Assembly: GCA_030038655.1 (NCBI GenBank)
Contig: JASHSP010000113.1
Location: forward strand, 5,420-69,419
Direction of reading: 5' to 3'
DNA from: Thermoplasmata archaeon
GTDB lineage: Archaea > Thermoplasmatota > Thermoplasmata > Lutacidiplasmatales > UBA184
DNA length: 64,000 nucleotides
The notes under the pieces were generated by a model. It was not told the origin of the DNA. It saw only the letters and a list, made by a program, of their open reading frames with translations, and searched no databases. Positions 14,489 to 21,539 of the stretch are shown here, one piece after another. How positions within the stretch are numbered: position 1 is the stretch's first letter; each line of letters begins with the position of its first letter. The translations under genes were made by a program, and so were the position numbers.

Positions 14489-14525
14489 CCCTCCGCGCTC
14501 GACCTTCCCCCCGGGGGTCCGATTG

Positions 14526-15092
14526 ATGAAGCGGAACACGACCGCGCGCGGGACGTTCTATCTCGTCTTGGCGATCGCCACGTTCGCCGTGGTCGCGGGG
14601 TTCGCCCTCGGTTCTTTCACGTTCGGGAGCTTCGGTTTCATTCCCAAGCAGACGGGCGCCTCCGGCGTCGCCCCGGGTGCGCCGGCGGGAGTCCAGTTCC
14701 CCCTCGCGGAGGCGACGTTCGTGACGCCGAGCTCGACTCCGGCGACGGGGGCTTGCACCACCACCAACCTCGGCACGAACCTCACGCCCAATCACCTCAC
14801 GAGCGGCGCGGCCGTCGGGATCTGCCTCAACGCGTTCTCGGGGGGCTACCTGACCGGCGACACGATGTGGATCCTGGAGGTGCTGTGGAACACGAGCGCG
14901 ACCGTCTCGACGCTGTTCAACGTGAGCATCTTCGAGTCGACCACCCCGGCCACGGACAGCATCCTCGCGACCGCCTGGGTCGAGACCTCGGCTACGATCA
15001 CGGCCAACGAGACCGCGATTTTCGCGGTCGACCTGAGCCAGAGCACGATCTCCTCGGTCAACACGTTCAACGTGCTCGTCACCGAGGTCTGA
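14526..15092 (+). CDS. Small secreted/anchored protein with an archaeal pilin-like or SipW-type N-terminal signal (MKRNTTARG|TFYLVLAIATFAVVAGFALG)
   Basis: 188 aa (the ORF track starts at a TTG at 14523). A basic n-region and RG are followed by a long hydrophobic segment. The body is a Thr/Ser-rich beta-rich domain with several NxS/T sequons. No homologue recognised. Confidence 0.55.
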   Translation: MKRNTTARGTFYLVLAIATFAVVAGFALGSFTFGSFGFIPKQTGASGVAPGAPAGVQFPLAEATFVTPSSTPATGACTTTNLGTNLTPNHLTSGAAVGICLNAFSGGYLTGDTMWILEVLWNTSATVSTLFNVSIFESTTPATDSILATAWVETSATITANETAIFAVDLSQSTISSVNTFNVLVTEV

Positions 15093-15145: not shown

Positions 15146-15874
15146 TCAACCCGACTTGCGCTGTGGACGGCCCGCCGAGCCCTTCCGAGATCGTGTCTCG
15201 GCCGCCACCTGTTCGTTGGCCTTCACGATCCGCGTTAGCTTCTCCGCGAATCGGGCGAGGTGGTCGCCCCGGATTCCGACGACCATCGTGTCGGCCCCCA
15301 GGTCCGTGTAGATCCGGGAGCCCGTGCACCCGAGCGAGATCGCCACCGGGGCACCCTGGTTCATGATCGGCACGATCGCGCACATCGGCCGCCCGTTCAT
15401 CGGAACCGGCTTCGCGTCGGTGCCGGCGCCCGCGGCCTCGACCGCCAGCATCGCCCCCTTCGGCCTCGCGAACAAGAGGACCGCGGTCGGGGGCATGCTC
15501 AGCGAGCCAAGCGGTCCGTAGGCGACGAACTTCGGCGCGGCGGCGTTGTGCGGGACGCGGGCTTCCTCGCCGGGATTGAGGTACCCCTCCTTCTGCATCG
15601 TGCCGAGCGTCGACATCAGCCGGCCCCCCAGCTCGCCCTCGGGAGGTATTCCCAGAACGAACGCGCCGATCTCGCACGCCGCGTGCTCCGTCAGGGGGGC
15701 GTAGAACGGCTTCTCGGTGCCGAACGCAAAGAAGGTGCAGACGGAGGGTACCCCTCCGGGGTGCTGCGGGACGCCGCTCGGGGGCTGGTCCAGGTAGGAT
15801 AGCTGGACGGGGGGACGGTCAAGTTCGAGCTGTCGGGCGAGCTGGATCGCTATCGTCCGGGACTCCGTCGTCAT
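15146..15874 (-). CDS. DUF169-family protein (COG2043)
   Basis: The ATG at 15872-15874 (MTTESRTIAIQLARQL...) gives a 242-aa protein resembling the DUF169 family (..CTFFAFGTEKPFYAPLTEHAACEIGAFVLG..PMCAIVPIMNQGAPVAISLGCTGSRIYTDL..). The upstream part of the 418-aa track ORF is Arg-rich artefact. Confidence 0.6.
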   Translation of the reverse strand: MTTESRTIAIQLARQLELDRPPVQLSYLDQPPSGVPQHPGGVPSVCTFFAFGTEKPFYAPLTEHAACEIGAFVLGIPPEGELGGRLMSTLGTMQKEGYLNPGEEARVPHNAAAPKFVAYGPLGSLSMPPTAVLLFARPKGAMLAVEAAGAGTDAKPVPMNGRPMCAIVPIMNQGAPVAISLGCTGSRIYTDLGADTMVVGIRGDHLARFAEKLTRIVKANEQVAAETRSRKGSAGRPQRKSG

Positions 15875-15975
15875 GGTGCGGCCCCACGTGGCAGGGAGGG
15901 TGCGGTATAGAGGGTTTGCCGGTCGAGGACGGTGTACGCCCGGGCCGGGCCCGATGCCCGAGGGTTGCCGCCGGC

Positions 15976-16515
15976 TCAAGCCGAGGGCAGCAGCAGCGGG
16001 TCGCCGCAGCCGGACGACTGCTCGGTTCCCGTGATCGTGACGACGATCACCGTCGAAGCGCCCCGGCATGCGTTCCCGGCGGTCGGAGAGAGCCCGATCA
16101 CGCCCTGGTAGGAGAACGTTCCGCCGGAAGCGAGCTCGCGGGGGGGAGAATTGGGAAGGTTGTCGGTGTAGGTGAACAAGGGGCACGCGTGCGGCTGGCC
16201 GATGCTGATGGACTGGGAAAGGGTCACGGCCACGCTTCCGACGTTCGCCAGGACGGCGTTGATCGTGCACGAGGTCCCGGGAGCAAGGACGTCGGCCGTC
16301 GCGGTGAGCGTGGACGTCGTGAGGCTCAACTGGCAGTGCACGTACGCGGCGTTCCCGACCGTGCTCGAGGGGTTCTTCCACTCGATCTGAAGGGTCGGGC
16401 ACTTCGAGTCGTCATGCCCCTGGTTGCACCCGGACCCCCCACCCCCGCCGCAGGCGAACGCCACCCCACCGGAAGCGGCAATGACGACGACCACCAGGGC
16501 CAGCAACTGTTTCAC
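15976..16515 (-). CDS. Small secreted Cys-containing protein (signal peptide MKQLLALVVVVIAASGGVAFACGGG, possible lipobox), last gene of the SipW-like operon
   Basis: 179 aa with an N-terminal signal peptide, a Gly-rich linker and a beta-rich body with 8 Cys. It is co-directional with and immediately downstream of the TasA-like genes. Confidence 0.55.
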   Translation of the reverse strand: MKQLLALVVVVIAASGGVAFACGGGGGSGCNQGHDDSKCPTLQIEWKNPSSTVGNAAYVHCQLSLTTSTLTATADVLAPGTSCTINAVLANVGSVAVTLSQSISIGQPHACPLFTYTDNLPNSPPRELASGGTFSYQGVIGLSPTAGNACRGASTVIVVTITGTEQSSGCGDPLLLPSA

Positions 16516-16641: not shown

Positions 16642-17202
16642 CTACGTCCCGGCCGACCCGGTCAGCGTCACCACGAAGGTGCAGTTCTCGCCCGCGCCCA
16701 GGTTGCTCGCGCTCGGCAGCAAATGGATGAACCCGGCCCACTGAATCGATCCCGTCGCCGGCACGACGTGCGTCTCGGCGCTCGTTTGGCCGCCCTCGCC
16801 GATCGTGACCGCCGGAGAGAAGAAATTGTCCCCGAACACCAGCACGCCACAGAGAGCACCCGACACGCTCGTGACCTGTTCCGAGACGGTCGCCGGGATC
16901 GACCCGAGGTTCGTGAGGGTGTCCCCGTAGCTGCAAATGTCGCCGGGAAGCAGGGTGTCGGCGGTCAGATAGAGGGTGTCGTCCGGCAAGTGGGTCGCCG
17001 GCCCGAGCGATGCGAAACAGACGTCGTTCGGCTCGAATCCGCCGTAGGCCGGGTCCGGGCCCCATACAAGGGGTCCCAGGGTCCCGGCCCGGGCGCCGCC
17101 GTCGACGTACGCCGCAGTCGTGAAGGCGGCGAAGCCGGTGCCGACGGTGGCCAGCACGGCCACCACGACCAACCCGGTCGTCGCCGCCTTCGTTAGGCGC
17201 AT
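16642..17202 (-). CDS. TasA/camelysin-like secreted protein with SipW-cognate-type signal peptide (paralogue 1)
   Basis: The N-terminus MRLTKAATTGLVVVAVLATVGTGFAAFTTAAYVDGGARAGTLGPL resembles the B. subtilis TasA/camelysin N-terminus (..GGGTWAAFND..ATFASGTLDL) and the TIGR04088 SipW-cognate signal class. It is about 185 aa and ends TLTGSAGT like its paralogue. Confidence 0.65.
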   Translation of the reverse strand: MRLTKAATTGLVVVAVLATVGTGFAAFTTAAYVDGGARAGTLGPLVWGPDPAYGGFEPNDVCFASLGPATHLPDDTLYLTADTLLPGDICSYGDTLTNLGSIPATVSEQVTSVSGALCGVLVFGDNFFSPAVTIGEGGQTSAETHVVPATGSIQWAGFIHLLPSASNLGAGENCTFVVTLTGSAGT

Positions 17203-17259: not shown

Positions 17260-17811
17260 TCAGGTCCCCGCGGATGCGGAGAACGTCAGGACGATGTTGC
17301 AGAATACACCCTGGTCGGCGTTCCCGAGACCGCCGCCGAGGCTCTCGGTGACCGTGTACTGCTGGTACGAGTAGCCGCCGATGGTCACGTACCCGTGCGT
17401 GACGCCGTACGACTCGTAGCCGAACCAGCTGTCGTAGGTGTACGTCACGTAGCATCCGGCCCCGCTGTCCTTCGTCGACGTGATCTCGACCGCGGCCGGG
17501 ATGGACCCTCCGTTGTTGAGGTCCGCGCTGAACGTGCACGAGTCACCCGGGGCGAGGTTGCCCGCGGTGAAGTTCAGCGTGTCGCTCGTGTTCAACGTCG
17601 TCGTGATGAAGTTCGTGCAGACGTCGAAGCTCTCGGTGCCCACGGGTGTGGCCGTGTTGCTCCAATAGAGCGGCCCGAGCGTTCCCGCCTGCGCTTGGGC
17701 GTCGATGTACGCACTCGTCGTAAAGCTCGCAAACCCGATCCCGCCGACCGCGATCGCAGCGACCACGGCGACAAGACCCAACATCCACCGCTTTCCCATA
17801 CTGCCCAACAC
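17260..17811 (-). CDS. TasA/camelysin-like secreted protein with SipW-cognate-type signal peptide (paralogue 2)
   Basis: The N-terminus MLGSMGKRWMLGLVAVVAAIAVGGIGFASFTTSAYIDAQAQAGTLGPLYW carries the same GxGFAxFTTxAY..AGTLGPL motif as the neighbouring gene. It ends TFSASAGT. Confidence 0.65.
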   Translation of the reverse strand: MLGSMGKRWMLGLVAVVAAIAVGGIGFASFTTSAYIDAQAQAGTLGPLYWSNTATPVGTESFDVCTNFITTTLNTSDTLNFTAGNLAPGDSCTFSADLNNGGSIPAAVEITSTKDSGAGCYVTYTYDSWFGYESYGVTHGYVTIGGYSYQQYTVTESLGGGLGNADQGVFCNIVLTFSASAGT

Positions 17812-17945: not shown

Positions 17946-19481
17946 TCACCTCGATCTCGAAGCCGGCCCCGGCGCGGGTCCGCCGCGCCGGGCGCCCCGC
18001 GTCAAGAGCTGCGAGAGCTCGGTCACCTCGAGGTAGGCGGCTGCAAGATCGTTCTCCCGCACCAGCGCCATCGTTCGGCTGATCCGGGCCCGCGCCTCGA
18101 ATGAGGTCTGGCGGTCGAGTTGCAGGGTTTCCATCCGGGCGACCTCGCGCTTCAGAAGGCGCGTTACGGCCAGCGATCCCGGGGAGAGCCCGGCGAGGTC
18201 GTCGAATCCGGTCGGGCCCTCCGGCGGGGGGGCCGCGGTGGGCGGACGGGCCGGGGCGGATGTTCCCGACGCGGCCATCGAGGGTCGGCCCCCCGGCGCC
18301 CCGCCGGGCGTCGCGACCGGTCGCACGGCGTTCGAAGGGGCGCTGGAAGGGACCGTCCGAACCGGACCGGCGGGAGTGGCTCCCGGGGAAGAGTCCCCGG
18401 TGGCGGCGGGTGCCGGCAGCGGGGTCACCGGTGGATTGCTCACACCGGTCGGCCTCGGAGAACCCCCGCTCGGTCCCCCGGGATACCGGAACGTGTACGC
18501 CCACGTTCCGTCCAGCACCACGAAATCGAATCGGCTTGCGTCGCTGCCGCCCGGGCGAAGGATCGGCTTGCCGAGAGTGTCGGCGACCTTCACCAGGTCG
18601 GCGAATCGGTCGACCCGGATCAGCGACGCCGAGCCGACGACGGTCTCGGTCTCGGCGATCGCCTCCTCGTACGGCGCGATCATCTGCTCGAGCGGCGGGA
18701 CCGCCTCGTCCTCCGGCCGGCGGGTCGCGAACCAGAGGCTGCCTCCCAGTCCGCCGAGGGAGAGCGCGAGGGCCGTCGACGGCACGAGCGCGGTCGTCGC
18801 ACCGGTGCTGGTGCCGGCCGGGGGTGCGACGATCGCCCCGGAGCTCGAGTAGTTGAGCCCGGTCGGCGTGATGAGCGACCCCGCGAACGTCAGGTTCAGG
18901 ATCGGCGCCTCCGCGAACGGTTGGCGAATCCCCGCCACCGCGATCGAGCCGGTGATGTGCGGCTCGAGCGAGAGGACGAACTCCGTGCCCGCGAAGCCGA
19001 CCTGGCGGTTGATCGACTGGGCCAGGGCGACGACGGCGGAGACGTTCACGTCGTAGTGGCTGGGGAGGGCGAGGAAGGTCGCGTCGGTCAACGTCGTCTG
19101 GTTGGTCGACGCAAACAGCGGCTTCGACCAGACGGTCGTGGACAGGTCGACGCCGAGCGACTCGTTGACCGTGATGGACGCCGGACGATCGGCGACCAGG
19201 GCGTAGATCAGGCTGACGTTGATCCAGTTCGTGATCGGCGTGAACAGCGTGATGTTGCCGCCGTAGACCTCGGTGGAGTTGTTGTAGAGCACGCTCGCGT
19301 TGACGGCCGCGGCGAACGAGTTGGCGCCCGTCTGCGAGAACGTTGCGACCGTGGTGCCCGCCGCGTTCGAACCGGCCGGATGGACCTGGGCGTCCAAGTA
19401 GTAGGCCGCCCAGACGGTCGTGAGAACGAAGACGACCGCCAAGGCGGACGCGACGGTCCGAACCCGCGCCGAGACCCTCAC
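17946..19481 (-). CDS. Larger SipW-cognate-type substrate / TapA-like accessory protein: signal anchor, N-glycosylated domain, Pro/Thr/Ser-rich linker and C-terminal coiled coil
   Basis: The GTG start at 19479-19481 overlaps the peptidase gene stop (GTGA). The N-terminus VSARVRTVASALAVVFVLTTVWAAYYLDAQ has the TxWAAF/YxD motif of TasA/TapA N-termini. The body carries many NxS/T sequons. The tail is PTGVSNPPVTPLPAPAATGDSSPGATPAG followed by the helical LKREVARMETLQLDRQTSFEARARISRTMALVRENDLAAAYLEVTELSQLL. The ORF track's extension to 19727 overlaps the upstream gene and is rejected. Confidence 0.6.
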   Translation of the reverse strand: MRVSARVRTVASALAVVFVLTTVWAAYYLDAQVHPAGSNAAGTTVATFSQTGANSFAAAVNASVLYNNSTEVYGGNITLFTPITNWINVSLIYALVADRPASITVNESLGVDLSTTVWSKPLFASTNQTTLTDATFLALPSHYDVNVSAVVALAQSINRQVGFAGTEFVLSLEPHITGSIAVAGIRQPFAEAPILNLTFAGSLITPTGLNYSSSGAIVAPPAGTSTGATTALVPSTALALSLGGLGGSLWFATRRPEDEAVPPLEQMIAPYEEAIAETETVVGSASLIRVDRFADLVKVADTLGKPILRPGGSDASRFDFVVLDGTWAYTFRYPGGPSGGSPRPTGVSNPPVTPLPAPAATGDSSPGATPAGPVRTVPSSAPSNAVRPVATPGGAPGGRPSMAASGTSAPARPPTAAPPPEGPTGFDDLAGLSPGSLAVTRLLKREVARMETLQLDRQTSFEARARISRTMALVRENDLAAAYLEVTELSQLLTRGARRGGPAPGPASRSR

Positions 19482-20836
19482 TTGCGCTCTCCTCGCCAGA
19501 CGACCGGAACCAGGATCGCGAGGAACACCACCGACGCGGCGAACAAGCGGTCCAGGATCAGGTAGCCCACGTACGGCACGTAGAAGACGACCGCCCCCAA
19601 GACATTCGCGTACGCGACCGTGCACGGGTCTTCCACGGGGTTGGCGTCGCCCTTCGTCTGGTAGACCCAGTCCGGTCCGCCGGAGACGATCCGGATCACC
19701 CGATGGACGGTCGGCGACGGCAGGCAATGGACGTCGAACGCGATGATGGTGCCGACCTTGATGTCGGCCGGTGCGACGTGCTCCACGACCACGAGTTCGC
19801 CCCGATGGAACGTCGGAACCATGCTGCCCGTCGCGATCGCGAGCACCGGCGACGGGGTGCCGAGGACGACGGGCAGGCCGTAGACAAACGAGATCGCGAC
19901 GACTCCGACGACGGCCGCGCTGACGAACGTTCCCCGGAGAGCGGCGCGCTCGCGGGCGCGACTACGGAACCGGAATCGGCGCGGGCCGATGCGCTCGCCC
20001 AGGTAGCGGAGTTTCTGCAGCCGGGGTTCCTCGAGCCCGAGCCCGACGATGACCAGGACCACGGCGTAGGCGACCAGCGCCGCGGCGAACTCGGTCTCCC
20101 ACCCCGGGAACCGGGCGGCGTAGGGCAGGAGCGTCGTCAGCGCCGAAACTCCGGCGGCCAGCGTGATGGGGCCCACCAGGCTCCAGCGGGTCTTGTACAG
20201 GTAGAAGGCCAGCACGATCCCCGCGACGAACGAAAGGATCGTCGTGGAGAAGAGGAACTGCACGGCGGCCGTCGGCCCGAGGAGCGGGAGGGCTCGGAGA
20301 TCGGTCGCGTTGAGGGCGTACATCCCGGCAGCGGCCAGCATGGCCGCCCGGAGCGGAAGGACCCGCGTGAGGGTACGGAACACGTACCCGAAGAACAGCC
20401 CGACCTCGGCGAGCGCGAGAACGGGGGTGCTCAGCAGCAGCAGCCCGAACGGGATGGGGGGGGTCGGCACGAGCTTGCCGAACCCGAACAAAAATCCCGG
20501 GTCGATCGACACGGCGAGGTAGAGCAGGATGAGCAGGGCGGCGAACGTCATGCTCGCCGACAGCGGCTCGCGAAGCGCGAACCCAAAATCGCGAAGGGGG
20601 CGCCGCTCCAGCTTCGCGGCGAGGAGGAGGAGGCCGACGAGCGCGGCGCCCAGGGCGAACAGACCGAGGTAGCTGCCGTAGCCGGTGAGCCACCGGACGA
20701 GGAAGCCGTAGACCTGCGTCGTCAGGATCGCGGCGGCGGCGATCCCAAGCGCCATCGCGAGGCTCTGGCGGCGGGATAGTCCTCCCGCGGGTGGCGATGC
20801 GAGGGCCGTGCGGGGCACGGTGGCGGCCACGCTCAC
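19478..20836 (-). CDS. Signal peptidase I (S26, archaeal Sec11/SipW-type) fused to a ~300-aa N-terminal polytopic (about 8-TM) membrane domain
   Basis: The C-terminal ~130 aa hold the catalytic Ser box (IATGSMVPTFHRGELVVVEHV), a His box (VHRVIRI) and the GDN-type box (KGDANPVEDP), followed by a C-terminal TM helix. The N-terminal domain has repeated hydrophobic helices with a weak Abi/CPBP-like layout but no intact EExxxR/FxxxH motifs. Confidence 0.7.
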   Translation of the reverse strand: MSVAATVPRTALASPPAGGLSRRQSLAMALGIAAAAILTTQVYGFLVRWLTGYGSYLGLFALGAALVGLLLLAAKLERRPLRDFGFALREPLSASMTFAALLILLYLAVSIDPGFLFGFGKLVPTPPIPFGLLLLSTPVLALAEVGLFFGYVFRTLTRVLPLRAAMLAAAGMYALNATDLRALPLLGPTAAVQFLFSTTILSFVAGIVLAFYLYKTRWSLVGPITLAAGVSALTTLLPYAARFPGWETEFAAALVAYAVVLVIVGLGLEEPRLQKLRYLGERIGPRRFRFRSRARERAALRGTFVSAAVVGVVAISFVYGLPVVLGTPSPVLAIATGSMVPTFHRGELVVVEHVAPADIKVGTIIAFDVHCLPSPTVHRVIRIVSGGPDWVYQTKGDANPVEDPCTVAYANVLGAVVFYVPYVGYLILDRLFAASVVFLAILVPVVWRGERK

Positions 20837-20837
20837 C

Positions 20838-21539
20838 TCACTTTCGGGATCGGGCGCGGGCCGAGCGGCGGATGTTGACCGATGCCGGCATGACGGCGAG
20901 ATCCCCCCGGGCCCCCGAATCTAGGCGCGGCCCCACGACGGGGGCTTGCCCGTCACGCAACCACCAGCGCTCGATCGAGTCGATCGGAAGTCCCGGGTCG
21001 GGGAACCGCTCCCCCGGGGAGACGAGTCCCCCGGACCGTCCGATGTGCGGAAGGGCGATCTCCGCGAGGGCGATCCTCGAGACCGTGCGCCCATGCGAGG
21101 AACTTCGTGGGCCCTGTCCCAGGGGAGCACCCCCGAGCGAACGGTACAGCTCACCCAGGATCGATTCGAACTCGGCGGTCTTGGCCAGCAACCGCTCGAT
21201 GGAATCCAGCACTGCCTCGGCGCGAACGGTGAGGCGGAACCCGCCCGGCGTCGGTCGCACCAGGTCGAAGGCGATGCCGAAGTTGAGGTACCGCCGGAAG
21301 GAGGAGGGGTTCAGGTTGGCCAGCCCGATGATCCGGGTCTTTTTCGGCTCCTGCCGAACCGCCCGGAGGAAGTCACGGAGGACTTCGACCCTCGTGCGGT
21401 AGCCCGCCTCCTCGCGCTGCGTCGACAGCCCCCCCCTACGCCCCGGACCCGCGCCGAGGCGGCGCGGGCTGCTGCGTGCCCTGGGACCCCCCCCAAAGTA
21501 TATGAGGGCTTGGTCAAGCCAAGACCCGACTTCGCGCAC
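20838..21539 (-). CDS. Putative winged-helix transcriptional regulator, first gene of the SipW-like operon
   Basis: 233 aa with a candidate wHTH (TRIIGLANLNPSSFRRYLNFGIAFDLVRPTPGGFRLTV). Its stop lies 2 nt from the peptidase start. The true start may be internal; function is inferred only from fold-like pattern and position. Confidence 0.35.
   Translation of the reverse strand: MREVGSWLDQALIYFGGGPRARSSPRRLGAGPGRRGGLSTQREEAGYRTRVEVLRDFLRAVRQEPKKTRIIGLANLNPSSFRRYLNFGIAFDLVRPTPGGFRLTVRAEAVLDSIERLLAKTAEFESILGELYRSLGGAPLGQGPRSSSHGRTVSRIALAEIALPHIGRSGGLVSPGERFPDPGLPIDSIERWWLRDGQAPVVGPRLDSGARGDLAVMPASVNIRRSARARSRK

Follow-up and report, generated by a model that had tools for sequence, protein, structure and literature searches.

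A degenerate CPBP-fold membrane domain fused to a Sec11/SipW-type signal peptidase in a predicted fibre operon of Thermoplasmata archaea

A 64,000-nucleotide stretch of DNA from a Thermoplasmata archaeon (assembly GCA_030038655.1, contig JASHSP010000113.1, positions 5,420 to 69,419 of the forward strand; here called the window) carries a gene in which an active-looking type I signal peptidase is joined, through a short basic linker, to a polytopic membrane domain with the predicted fold of the CPBP/Rce1 intramembrane proteases. The catalytic motifs of the membrane domain have degenerated, and the gene lies in an operon that most likely, by analogy with characterised loci, builds a surface fibre by donor-strand exchange. 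The explanation that we consider rather probable makes the dead CPBP domain an inbuilt partner of the peptidase, much as SpbR of Staphylococcus aureus is a partner of the signal peptidase SpsB, with control over the access of the signal peptides of the fibre subunits.

Spurious long open reading frames (ORFs) are frequent in DNA with a G+C content of approximately 70%, as in the window, and several long antisense ORFs overlap the fusion gene. The ORF at 19478..20836 is considered real because of the score of its C-terminal 150 residues against the archaeal signal peptidase model TIGR02228 (below) and because its full-length homologues fall into 101 clusters at 90% identity. Nearly all of these are 440–457 residues long, with a query coverage of 90–100%, and they are drawn from independent JGI, ENA, NCBI and Logan assemblies. 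The named sources of homologues with the fusion architecture are all Thermoplasmata metagenome-assembled genomes (MAGs), and the architecture is the standard form in a clade of this group. The sequence-only reading of this DNA had called the architecture new. Full-text literature searches indeed returned no description of a CPBP–signal peptidase fusion, nor of a CPBP-like gene in taf or TasA-like loci, but the fusion is not rare and its homologues are already in the databases, labelled only ‘signal peptidase I’. The best match of the window protein in the protein collection has 68% identity, whereas the neighbouring small protein has an entry there that is 100% identical (P0202, from an NCBI contig); the gene caller of the source record seems to have missed or miscalled the fusion ORF.

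That reading had also raised the possibility of a frameshift or assembly artefact joining two separate genes. The closest genome copy, in the uncultured Thermoplasmata MAG MFD03399.bin.2.114 (locus L013; 87% nucleotide and 90% amino-acid identity for the repaired gene), does have a 1-nucleotide insertion in the fusion gene (L013:8676-8678, GGCCGACCGGA versus GGCCGCCGGA, equivalent to gene position ~682, or ~20154 in the window), which causes a frameshift in the CPBP-like domain, and split versions of the protein occur in another lineage. However, the ~450-residue architecture recurs, intact, in the independent clusters just described, the insertion in L013 falls at codon ~228, within the N-terminal domain and away from the domain junction, and no part of the protein is better conserved than the linker that spans this junction. 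When the extra base is removed, the ratios of non-synonymous to synonymous substitution rates (dN/dS) between the window and L013 come to 0.19 (CPBP-like domain), 0.02 (linker) and 0.095 (peptidase). Both domains are therefore under purifying selection, which continues downstream of the indel. These low values indicate that the indel is probably an assembly error rather than the mark of a pseudogene and that the dead domain has been kept by selection, that is, that the N-terminal half is functional despite its lost catalysis. An artefact is thus almost certainly not the explanation of the long ORF.

For the C-terminal half, the NCBIfam model TIGR02228 (archaeal signal peptidase I) matches residues 304–439 with 91.7 bits against a cutoff of 51.85. 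A family profile, built from 25 homologues and used both for alignment to the PDB and for column conservation, aligns residues 293–449 with human SEC11A over its whole length (7p2p, E-value 6e-23) and with SEC11C (7p2q, E-value 6.5e-21), the anchor and the C-terminal helix included. Ser338 (in GSMVPT), His378 (in VHRV) and Asp397 and Asp403 (both in KGDANPVEDP) are invariant in the 25 homologues and align with the SEC11A motifs, and Foldseek likewise matches SEC11A and SEC11C to the C-terminal half of the fusion model. The sequence-only reading had quoted the same motifs, which are real, together with a C-terminal transmembrane (TM) helix, which the SEC11A alignment takes in, and had confined the S26 core to the end of the protein, where it does occupy only the last ~150 residues. 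On its own, the Pfam model for S26 stays under its cutoff on this peptidase (17.1 versus 22.9 bits), and the SipW equivalog NF046067 gives 53.4 bits against a cutoff of 190; the enzyme is related to SipW and is no SipW orthologue. Its catalytic domain runs straight into the single terminal TM helix. Taken at face value, these features are those of the Ser-His type shared by eukaryotes, archaea and SipW, and the enzyme looks active.

The N-terminal half of the window protein has no matches in Pfam, even at an E-value of 1 or below, and none in NCBIfam. Relatives of the domain are more readily placed: 15 of 25 homologous N-domains match PF02517 (Rce1-like/CPBP), with a best E-value of 9e-11, and a profile run against 1.84 billion representative proteins returned only 102 relatives, among which all ten non-fused proteins tested (five standalone or truncated proteins of ~270–290 residues and five with a C-terminal domain of this kind) exceed the PF02517 gathering score. 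Hydropathy and an AlphaFold2 (AF2) model of the fusion place helices at residues ~22–49, 52–77, 92–117, 127–159, 162–177, 188–215, 221–236 and 246–267. The model has a mean predicted local distance difference test score (pLDDT) of 77.5, with values of ~80–95 over most of residues 21–270. In a Foldseek comparison with the PDB its top match is SpdC of the SagB–SpdC complex (6u0o_A; E-value 6.5e-5, TM-score (TMt) 0.69, identity 14%), followed by four chains of Methanococcus Rce1 (4cad; E-values 1e-3 to 5e-3, TMt 0.54–0.60). When the PDB was searched by sequence profile, the N-domain family yielded a marginal Rce1 match (E-value 0.15) and the full-length fusion nothing for this half, so that among the PDB searches the fold comparison alone identifies it convincingly as CPBP. 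The model thus assigns the CPBP/Rce1 eight-helix fold to the N-domain, and the Rce1 comparison that had been suggested for it yields a match. A separate architecture was also seen in five proteins (P0139, P0144, P0146, P0151 and P0155; e.g., L007:3162-4571), in which a Cys/Trp-rich ectodomain of ~200 residues precedes a degenerate CPBP-like domain. In the one context viewed, that of P0139 in L007, there is no peptidase or DUF5305 gene nearby and a cohesin-like gene lies a few genes off; with no peptidase adjoining there, this group was set aside as a peptidase-linked form.

The catalytic residues were mapped by HMMER alignment to Methanococcus Rce1 (MmRce1) and by a MAFFT alignment in which an Rce1 fragment anchored 229 members of the family. 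Motif 1, EExxxR, has become EVGLFF (residues 144–149) in the window protein, in which Glu144, at the position of MmRce1 Glu140, is the sole surviving motif residue, while Glu141 and Arg145 correspond to Val145 and Phe149. Motif 2, FxxxH, is represented by Y173-A-L-N-A177, where His173 is replaced by Ala177 (the adjacent position is Asn176). In motif 3, HxxxN/D, His227 and Asn231 are replaced by Ala227 and Ser231; across the family the former site is Leu, Ala or Arg, and His is rare. There is no histidine at all in residues 1–300 of the window protein, the CPBP-like region is free of histidine in 69 of 121 fused homologues, and conserved histidine columns are absent. Sister clades have ‘QExxFRG’ and standalone relatives ‘[TSA]ExxFRG’, which keep the structural Glu/Arg pair and have lost the first catalytic Glu. 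Judged by sequence, the canonical Glu-His mechanism is excluded for the fusion family, and the domain is better classed as a CPBP-fold pseudoenzyme than as a CPBP protease, since it fails all the catalytic-motif tests. The expectation of about eight TM helices in a CPBP/Abi-like arrangement with no intact protease motifs was accordingly sound.

It is conceivable that the N-domain has remained an enzyme with non-canonical residues, trimming the conserved ‘...TFSATAG(T/S)’ tail of the secreted proteins encoded nearby, or acting as an LnsB-like transferase on the Cys-containing third subunit. Glu144 does occupy the position of the Rce1 catalytic Glu140, the C-termini of the subunits are conserved, the third small protein has a lipobox-like site, AFA|C, and acyl transfer can involve CPBP-fold proteins whose motifs are degenerate, as in LnsB, a CPBP-like protein of staphylococcal lipoprotein N-acylation (PMC7387801). 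Nevertheless, fused members lack both a conserved histidine and a second acidic catalytic column, and the N-domain in the window has no histidine to offer. Position 144 is Gln in the sister clades and Thr, Ser or Ala in the standalone relatives, and the neighbouring Glu/Arg pair switches on and off; such variation suits structural residues, not a fixed active site. A residual enzymatic role, even with Glu144 retained, is therefore unlikely, and this explanation as a whole is hardly probable.

The peptidase anchor is a hydrophobic helix at residues 303–325 that directly follows the Arg-rich linker, and Arg22/23 precede helix 1. Because the number of preceding TM helices is even (eight) and Arg22/23 stand ahead of the first, the linker would be cytoplasmic and catalysis extracellular. 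On hydropathy and the positive-inside rule, the fusion is thus topologically coherent. Two extracellular loops are conserved, DPGFxFGFG at 112–120 and LLPxxAxFPxWE at 235–247, and in the model they form a small β-sheet. Residues 21–23 (window 20767-20775, minus strand) read ...GLSRRQSLAMALG... and recall a twin-arginine motif, but homologues do not conserve the RR pair, which probably amounts to positive-inside charge.

The occurrence of the same pair in fused and in split form is the most telling evidence that CPBP-like protein and peptidase act jointly. Among standalone proteins, those most closely related to the N-domain have 270–292 residues and come, where a source is named, from Bathyarchaeia or Nitrososphaeria archaea. 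(One further candidate of this kind, the 275-residue P0114, was ruled out as a fusion ended by a contig edge.) In L017, four small genes are followed by genes for DUF5305, the CPBP-like protein and a Peptidase_S26 protein, with gaps of 1–2 nucleotides. The counterparts of the window proteins there have 44% identity for the peptidase (E-value 2e-25), 29% for the CPBP-like protein (5e-19) and 24% for DUF5305 (7e-17). In L016 the CPBP-like gene is followed, 3 nucleotides on, by an S26 peptidase ORF beginning MKTRHHKKRR...ISGQSMNPTLEDGD, and in L015 the C-terminus of DUF5305 is encoded directly upstream of the CPBP-like gene. The order in L018 is HTH_45, five small genes, CPBP-like, a NosD β-helix protein, DUF5305 and S26. 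A three-gene module is therefore conserved, fused and split, in contigs assigned to two archaeal lineages, and the linkage of N-domain homologues to peptidases elsewhere, on which the sequence-only reading had made its proposal depend, is found in these Bathyarchaeia-type contigs, 1–3 nucleotides from the S26 gene and near DUF5305. The termini of the split proteins also account for the linker: the standalone CPBP-like proteins end ‘...EP.....RYGLE’, a basic tail opens the separate peptidase, and the linker of the fusion is therefore those two tails joined. The NosD/β-helix gene is found in the split modules (L017:1050-2567, L018:7856-9292, in the latter between the CPBP-like and DUF5305 genes) and is absent from the Thermoplasmata operon.

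The genes that flank the fusion are listed in Table 1. The HTH_45 stop codon is separated from the fusion start codon by 1 nucleotide, and in L002, L003 and L004, too, the fusion is directly preceded by an HTH_45 gene. On the other side, the GTG start of the DUF5305 gene overlaps the TGA stop of the fusion as GTGA, and this overlap indicates that the two are translationally coupled; DUF5305 directly follows the fusion in L001–L003, and the gene order of the window operon is repeated around the homologues P0001 and P0065. No sequence relative of the DUF5305 protein was found in the PDB; a likeness to the SPC22/23 subunit is conjectural. The window version (511 residues) is ~150 residues longer than that of Bathyarchaeia (366 residues), and the extra part (17946-18450, minus strand; the C-terminal ~170 residues) is a Pro/Ala/Gly-rich stretch of low complexity followed by a helical-looking tail, which is presumably cytoplasmic.

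Downstream lie three genes for small secreted proteins. The first has 36 homologues, all of ~172–192 residues, and the signal of this family, ...VAVGGIGFA|AFTTSAY..AGTLGPL, is near-invariant, with a column identity of 0.83 against 0.56 for the globular part (26 homologues). A signal that is more conserved than the mature domain is the inverse of the usual situation; it recalls the SipW-dependent signal of TasA and fits a dedicated recognition step. A scan of the whole window with the signal motif matched two ORFs only, those of small proteins 1 and 2 (17260-17811 and 16642-17202), so that genes with SipW-type signals do stand beside the fusion, as they do in related loci. The ‘...TFSATAG(T/S)’ tail is conserved as well. 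In the third protein the signal ends GGVAFA|CGGGGGSGC, with a lipobox-like Cys and then a Gly run, and this protein may form the base or the tip of the fibre as a subunit anchored in the membrane; a third small gene stands at the equivalent position in L001–L003. The AF2 model of protein 1 is a β-sandwich (pLDDT 80), and 20 of 26 family members give weak matches to PF12389 (TasA/camelysin; best E-value 1.8e-4). No DUF1102 match was obtained in the small proteins of the window, and an NCBIfam scan detected neither TIGR04088 nor TasA, the lone TasA match having an E-value of 0.79 in one member. The assignment of the subunits to TasA/Taf-like fibres is thus weak.

Table 1. Predicted features of the fusion gene and its operon (window coordinates; aa, amino acids)
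Feature	Position	Strand	Description
Winged-helix regulator (HTH_45)	20838..21539	minus	First operon gene; Pfam HTH_45 36.4 bits, cutoff 25.5
Whole fusion gene	19478..20836	minus	452 aa, GTG start; CPBP-like pseudoprotease domain, basic linker and Sec11/SipW-type signal peptidase I
CPBP/Rce1-fold domain (predicted)	20027..20764	minus	aa 25–270; eight TM helices, degenerate motifs; AF2, Foldseek, motif mapping
Glu144 codon	20405-20407	minus	Sole surviving CPBP motif residue
Cytoplasmic Arg-rich linker (predicted)	19931..20026	minus	aa 271–302, EPRLQKLRYLGERIGPRRFRFRSRARERAALR; most constrained segment, near-invariant residues
Signal peptidase I domain	19481..19930	minus	aa 303–452; N-in anchor helix, extracellular catalytic domain, C-terminal TM helix
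Ser338 codon	19823-19825	minus	Catalytic
His378 codon	19703-19705	minus	Catalytic
Asp397 codon	19646-19648	minus	Catalytic
Asp403 codon	19628-19630	minus	Catalytic
DUF5305 (TafG-like) membrane protein	17946..19481	minus	511 aa, GTG start; Pfam DUF5305 33.1 bits, cutoff 29
Small secreted protein 1	17260..17811	minus	β-sandwich, putative fibre subunit and substrate; signal ...AVGGIGFA|SFTTSAY...AGTLGPL
Small secreted protein 2	16642..17202	minus	Paralogue of protein 1 (38% identity, E-value 1e-24); signal GTGFA|AFTTAAY
Small secreted protein 3	15976..16515	minus	179 aa; weak relation, BLASTP E-value 1e-4 over LAPGxSC...N.GS core

The operon is bounded by a DUF169 gene (15146-16402). Just past it, at 14523-15092 on the plus strand, is a 189-residue ORF with an N-terminal hydrophobic helix, a Thr/Ser-rich body and no family match.

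Because the peptidase looks active, its dead partner is under selection, DUF5305 is obligatory, the signals of the candidate substrates are conserved and SpdC and SpbR provide precedents, it can be proposed that the peptidase anchor is held by the N-domain, which would thereby control the access of signal peptides to the active site. The precursors of the subunits would be inserted in the membrane through their unusually conserved signal peptides. The CPBP-like domain would pack on the anchor helix of the peptidase, and its intramembrane cavity and conserved extracellular loops would restrict or guide the signal peptides to the Ser338/His378 site, with the loops DPGFxFGFG and LLPxxAxFPxW as candidate contacts for the catalytic domain. 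Cleavage, predicted after G-F-A and thus before Ser29 in the 183-residue small protein 1, would then free the N-terminus as a donor strand for polymerisation, and DUF5305 would be a third partner. How the domains pack, how specificity is affected, where cleavage occurs and the fibre itself are all inferred. The two functions that the sequence-only reading had offered for the extra domain, a docking scaffold or a degenerate second protease, are in keeping with these findings.

A number of observations weigh against this proposal. Contact between the domains is deduced indirectly, and the anchor helix that would make it (residues 303–330) has a pLDDT of only 39–49 in the AF2 model. The closest relative, L013, has its insertion within the N-domain, and Glu144 is kept in 37 of the 60 closest homologues, which leaves some room for residual chemistry. 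On the substrate side, all the PF12389 matches of the subunits are below the gathering score, and the Foldseek matches of the subunit model to AbpA of Pyrobaculum (7ueg; probability 0.92) and TasA (8aur; 0.75) are non-significant, with E-values of 0.07–0.1. SpsB is a Ser-Lys (P-type) enzyme and the window peptidase a Ser-His enzyme of the endoplasmic reticulum (ER) type, so that the parallel may be convergent. Finally, SpbR is an inhibitor; what a cell would gain from binding such an inhibitor to its target in an obligate 1:1 fusion is not obvious, and the effect here may run in either direction.

This last point raises the question of whether the CPBP-like domain is a strict brake of the SpbR type, released by binding of DUF5305, by the build-up of subunits or by the state of the membrane, and serving to time fibre assembly. 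In S. aureus, SpbR, a degenerate CAAX-protease-like protein, forms a 1:1 complex with SpsB and controls cleavage; the TM helix of SpsB packs on TM5 and TM7 of SpbR, and it is through this binding that SpbR inhibits the enzyme (PMC12260438). DUF5305, translationally coupled to the fusion and always co-occurring with it, could be the releasing factor, and the extreme constraint on the linker would suit a regulatory hinge. However, the sequence offers nothing that would part inhibition from guidance, the winged-helix gene already gives the dedicated peptidase transcriptional control, and the split forms imply co-expression at approximately 1:1 rather than conditional expression. A strict brake is on these grounds unlikely, and guidance or specificity is favoured, given an obligate 1:1 fusion in a dedicated operon.

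Alternatively, the polytopic domain might be a platform for anchoring or assembling the fibre, in the manner of an usher or of TapA, fused to the peptidase for co-localisation and with no effect on catalysis. The conserved extracellular loops and the small β-sheet of the model could bind subunits, and published taf-like clusters come with no identified assembly factor (PMC11821415). Against this, the closest precedents of degenerate CPBP proteins are partners of membrane-anchored hydrolases (SpdC–SagB; SpbR–SpsB, PMC12260438), and in L016 and L017 the split CPBP-like gene adjoins that of the peptidase itself, but two genes intervene in L018. A platform with no catalytic effect appears improbable. 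The analogies first drawn with archaeosortase/exosortase and with bacteriocin immunity found no support: no such family appeared in the Pfam and NCBIfam scans or in the PDB fold search, and only fibre-locus genes were found at the window locus.

Gene fusion is strong genomic evidence of a functional, and often physical, partnership. If the CPBP-like domain is indeed a built-in partner that controls signal-peptide access, it offers a testable model of how a ‘generic’ signal peptidase is made substrate-specific, as well as a component that is absent from published descriptions of archaeal taf/TasA-like fibre loci. It also adds a well-populated case to the CPBP pseudoenzymes that partner membrane-anchored hydrolases, and the natural single-chain construct should ease structural study relative to a two-protein complex. 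A more sweeping proposition, possible but on present evidence doubtful, is that CPBP-fold pseudoproteases are general and ancient accessory subunits of prokaryotic type I signal peptidases. The trio of CPBP-like protein, peptidase and DUF5305 would then be an archaeal three-subunit ‘signal peptidase complex’, in which the dead cavity reads the near-invariant signal peptides of the fibre subunits and couples their cleavage to polymerisation. Were this true, the trio would have a functional counterpart in the eukaryotic signal peptidase complex, where non-catalytic subunits influence the choice of substrates.

Among characterised systems, the taf (Tat-fimbriae) loci and their taf-like relatives in Haloarcula, Natrinema, Thermococcales and Archaeoglobus (TafB, TafD, TafG and TafA/E) have the same complement of genes, which comprises a regulator, an S26 peptidase of their own, a DUF5305 protein and a set of two or three secreted proteins, each 150–200 residues long. 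In haloarchaea, the signal peptidase TafD is required for processing of the fibre subunit TafA, TafG (DUF5305) is predicted to assist TafD, and the subunits assemble by donor-strand exchange (PMC11821415; PMC12337348). TafD differs from the window peptidase in having four TM helices, a C-terminal Ig-like ectodomain and no CPBP domain (PMC11821415), and neither of the two taf papers (PMC11821415; PMC12337348) mentions a CPBP/CAAX-like component. The subunits differ too, those of the window lacking a DUF1102 match and resembling TasA weakly. By its gene set, the window locus is best described as a fibre locus of the taf-like kind in which the peptidase is a variant, with DUF5305 as a third component, features on which the sequence-only reading had not remarked. 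The tapA-sipW-tasA operon similarly places a dedicated ER-type signal peptidase beside its subunits, whose signals end ‘...G-x-[FW]-A|[AS]-F...’ and are followed by ‘GTL’, and in Bacillus subtilis the N-terminus of the fibre subunit becomes the donor strand after cleavage (PMC9674648). Unlike the fusion, SipW has no described polytopic partner domain, and no TapA homologue was identified at the window locus.

The N-domain itself shares its eight-helix fold with the Rce1/CPBP (Abi) intramembrane glutamic proteases (4cad), and its relatives pass PF02517; it departs from Rce1 in the degeneration of all three motifs, the absence of histidine and the lack of a PF02517 match of its own. Partnership of non-catalytic proteins of this fold with membrane enzymes has precedents. 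SpdC binds SagB (6u0o), a membrane-anchored extracellular hydrolase like the window peptidase, but SagB is a glucosaminidase, not a peptidase, and sequence identity is 14%. In γ-secretase, APH-1 is a degenerate CPBP-related membrane protein that serves as a non-catalytic subunit of another membrane protease. APH-1, however, is eukaryotic, and its partner is an aspartyl intramembrane protease.

The nearest precedents in mechanism are SpdC and SpbR, both noncatalytic CPBP proteins, and in SpbR–SpsB both partners have counterparts in the fusion. Here too a polytopic CPBP-fold protein with degenerate EExxxR, FxxxH and HxxxN motifs is paired with a single-pass type I signal peptidase that carries out catalysis outside the cell, and motif 1 of SpbR, HELYMR, in which the first Glu is lost and the second Glu and the Arg are kept, has the pattern of the sister clades of the window protein (QExxFR, TExxFR). 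The two systems differ in that the SpbR and SpsB genes are unlinked, whereas the archaeal parts form one polypeptide or, in Bathyarchaeia-type contigs, adjacent genes of an operon, and in that SpsB is a Ser-Lys enzyme in a context of lipoteichoic acid control, whereas the archaeal peptidase is of the Ser-His Sec11/SipW type and belongs to a fibre operon. As a degenerate CAAX-protease-like polytopic protein the N-domain resembles an SpbR-type partner. The SpbR study (2025) closed by asking about direct regulators of signal peptidases outside the Staphylococcaceae (PMC12260438). A likely answer can be read from the sequence: a dead CAAX-protease-like protein is fused or adjacent to a Sec11-type peptidase in two archaeal lineages, which suggests that regulator–peptidase partnerships are widespread. 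The parts are of known kinds; what is new is the extension of the SpbR concept, through evidence from gene fusion, to archaea and to Sec11-type enzymes, where covalent fusion and gene spacings of 1–3 nucleotides argue for a physical complex of CPBP-like protein and peptidase.

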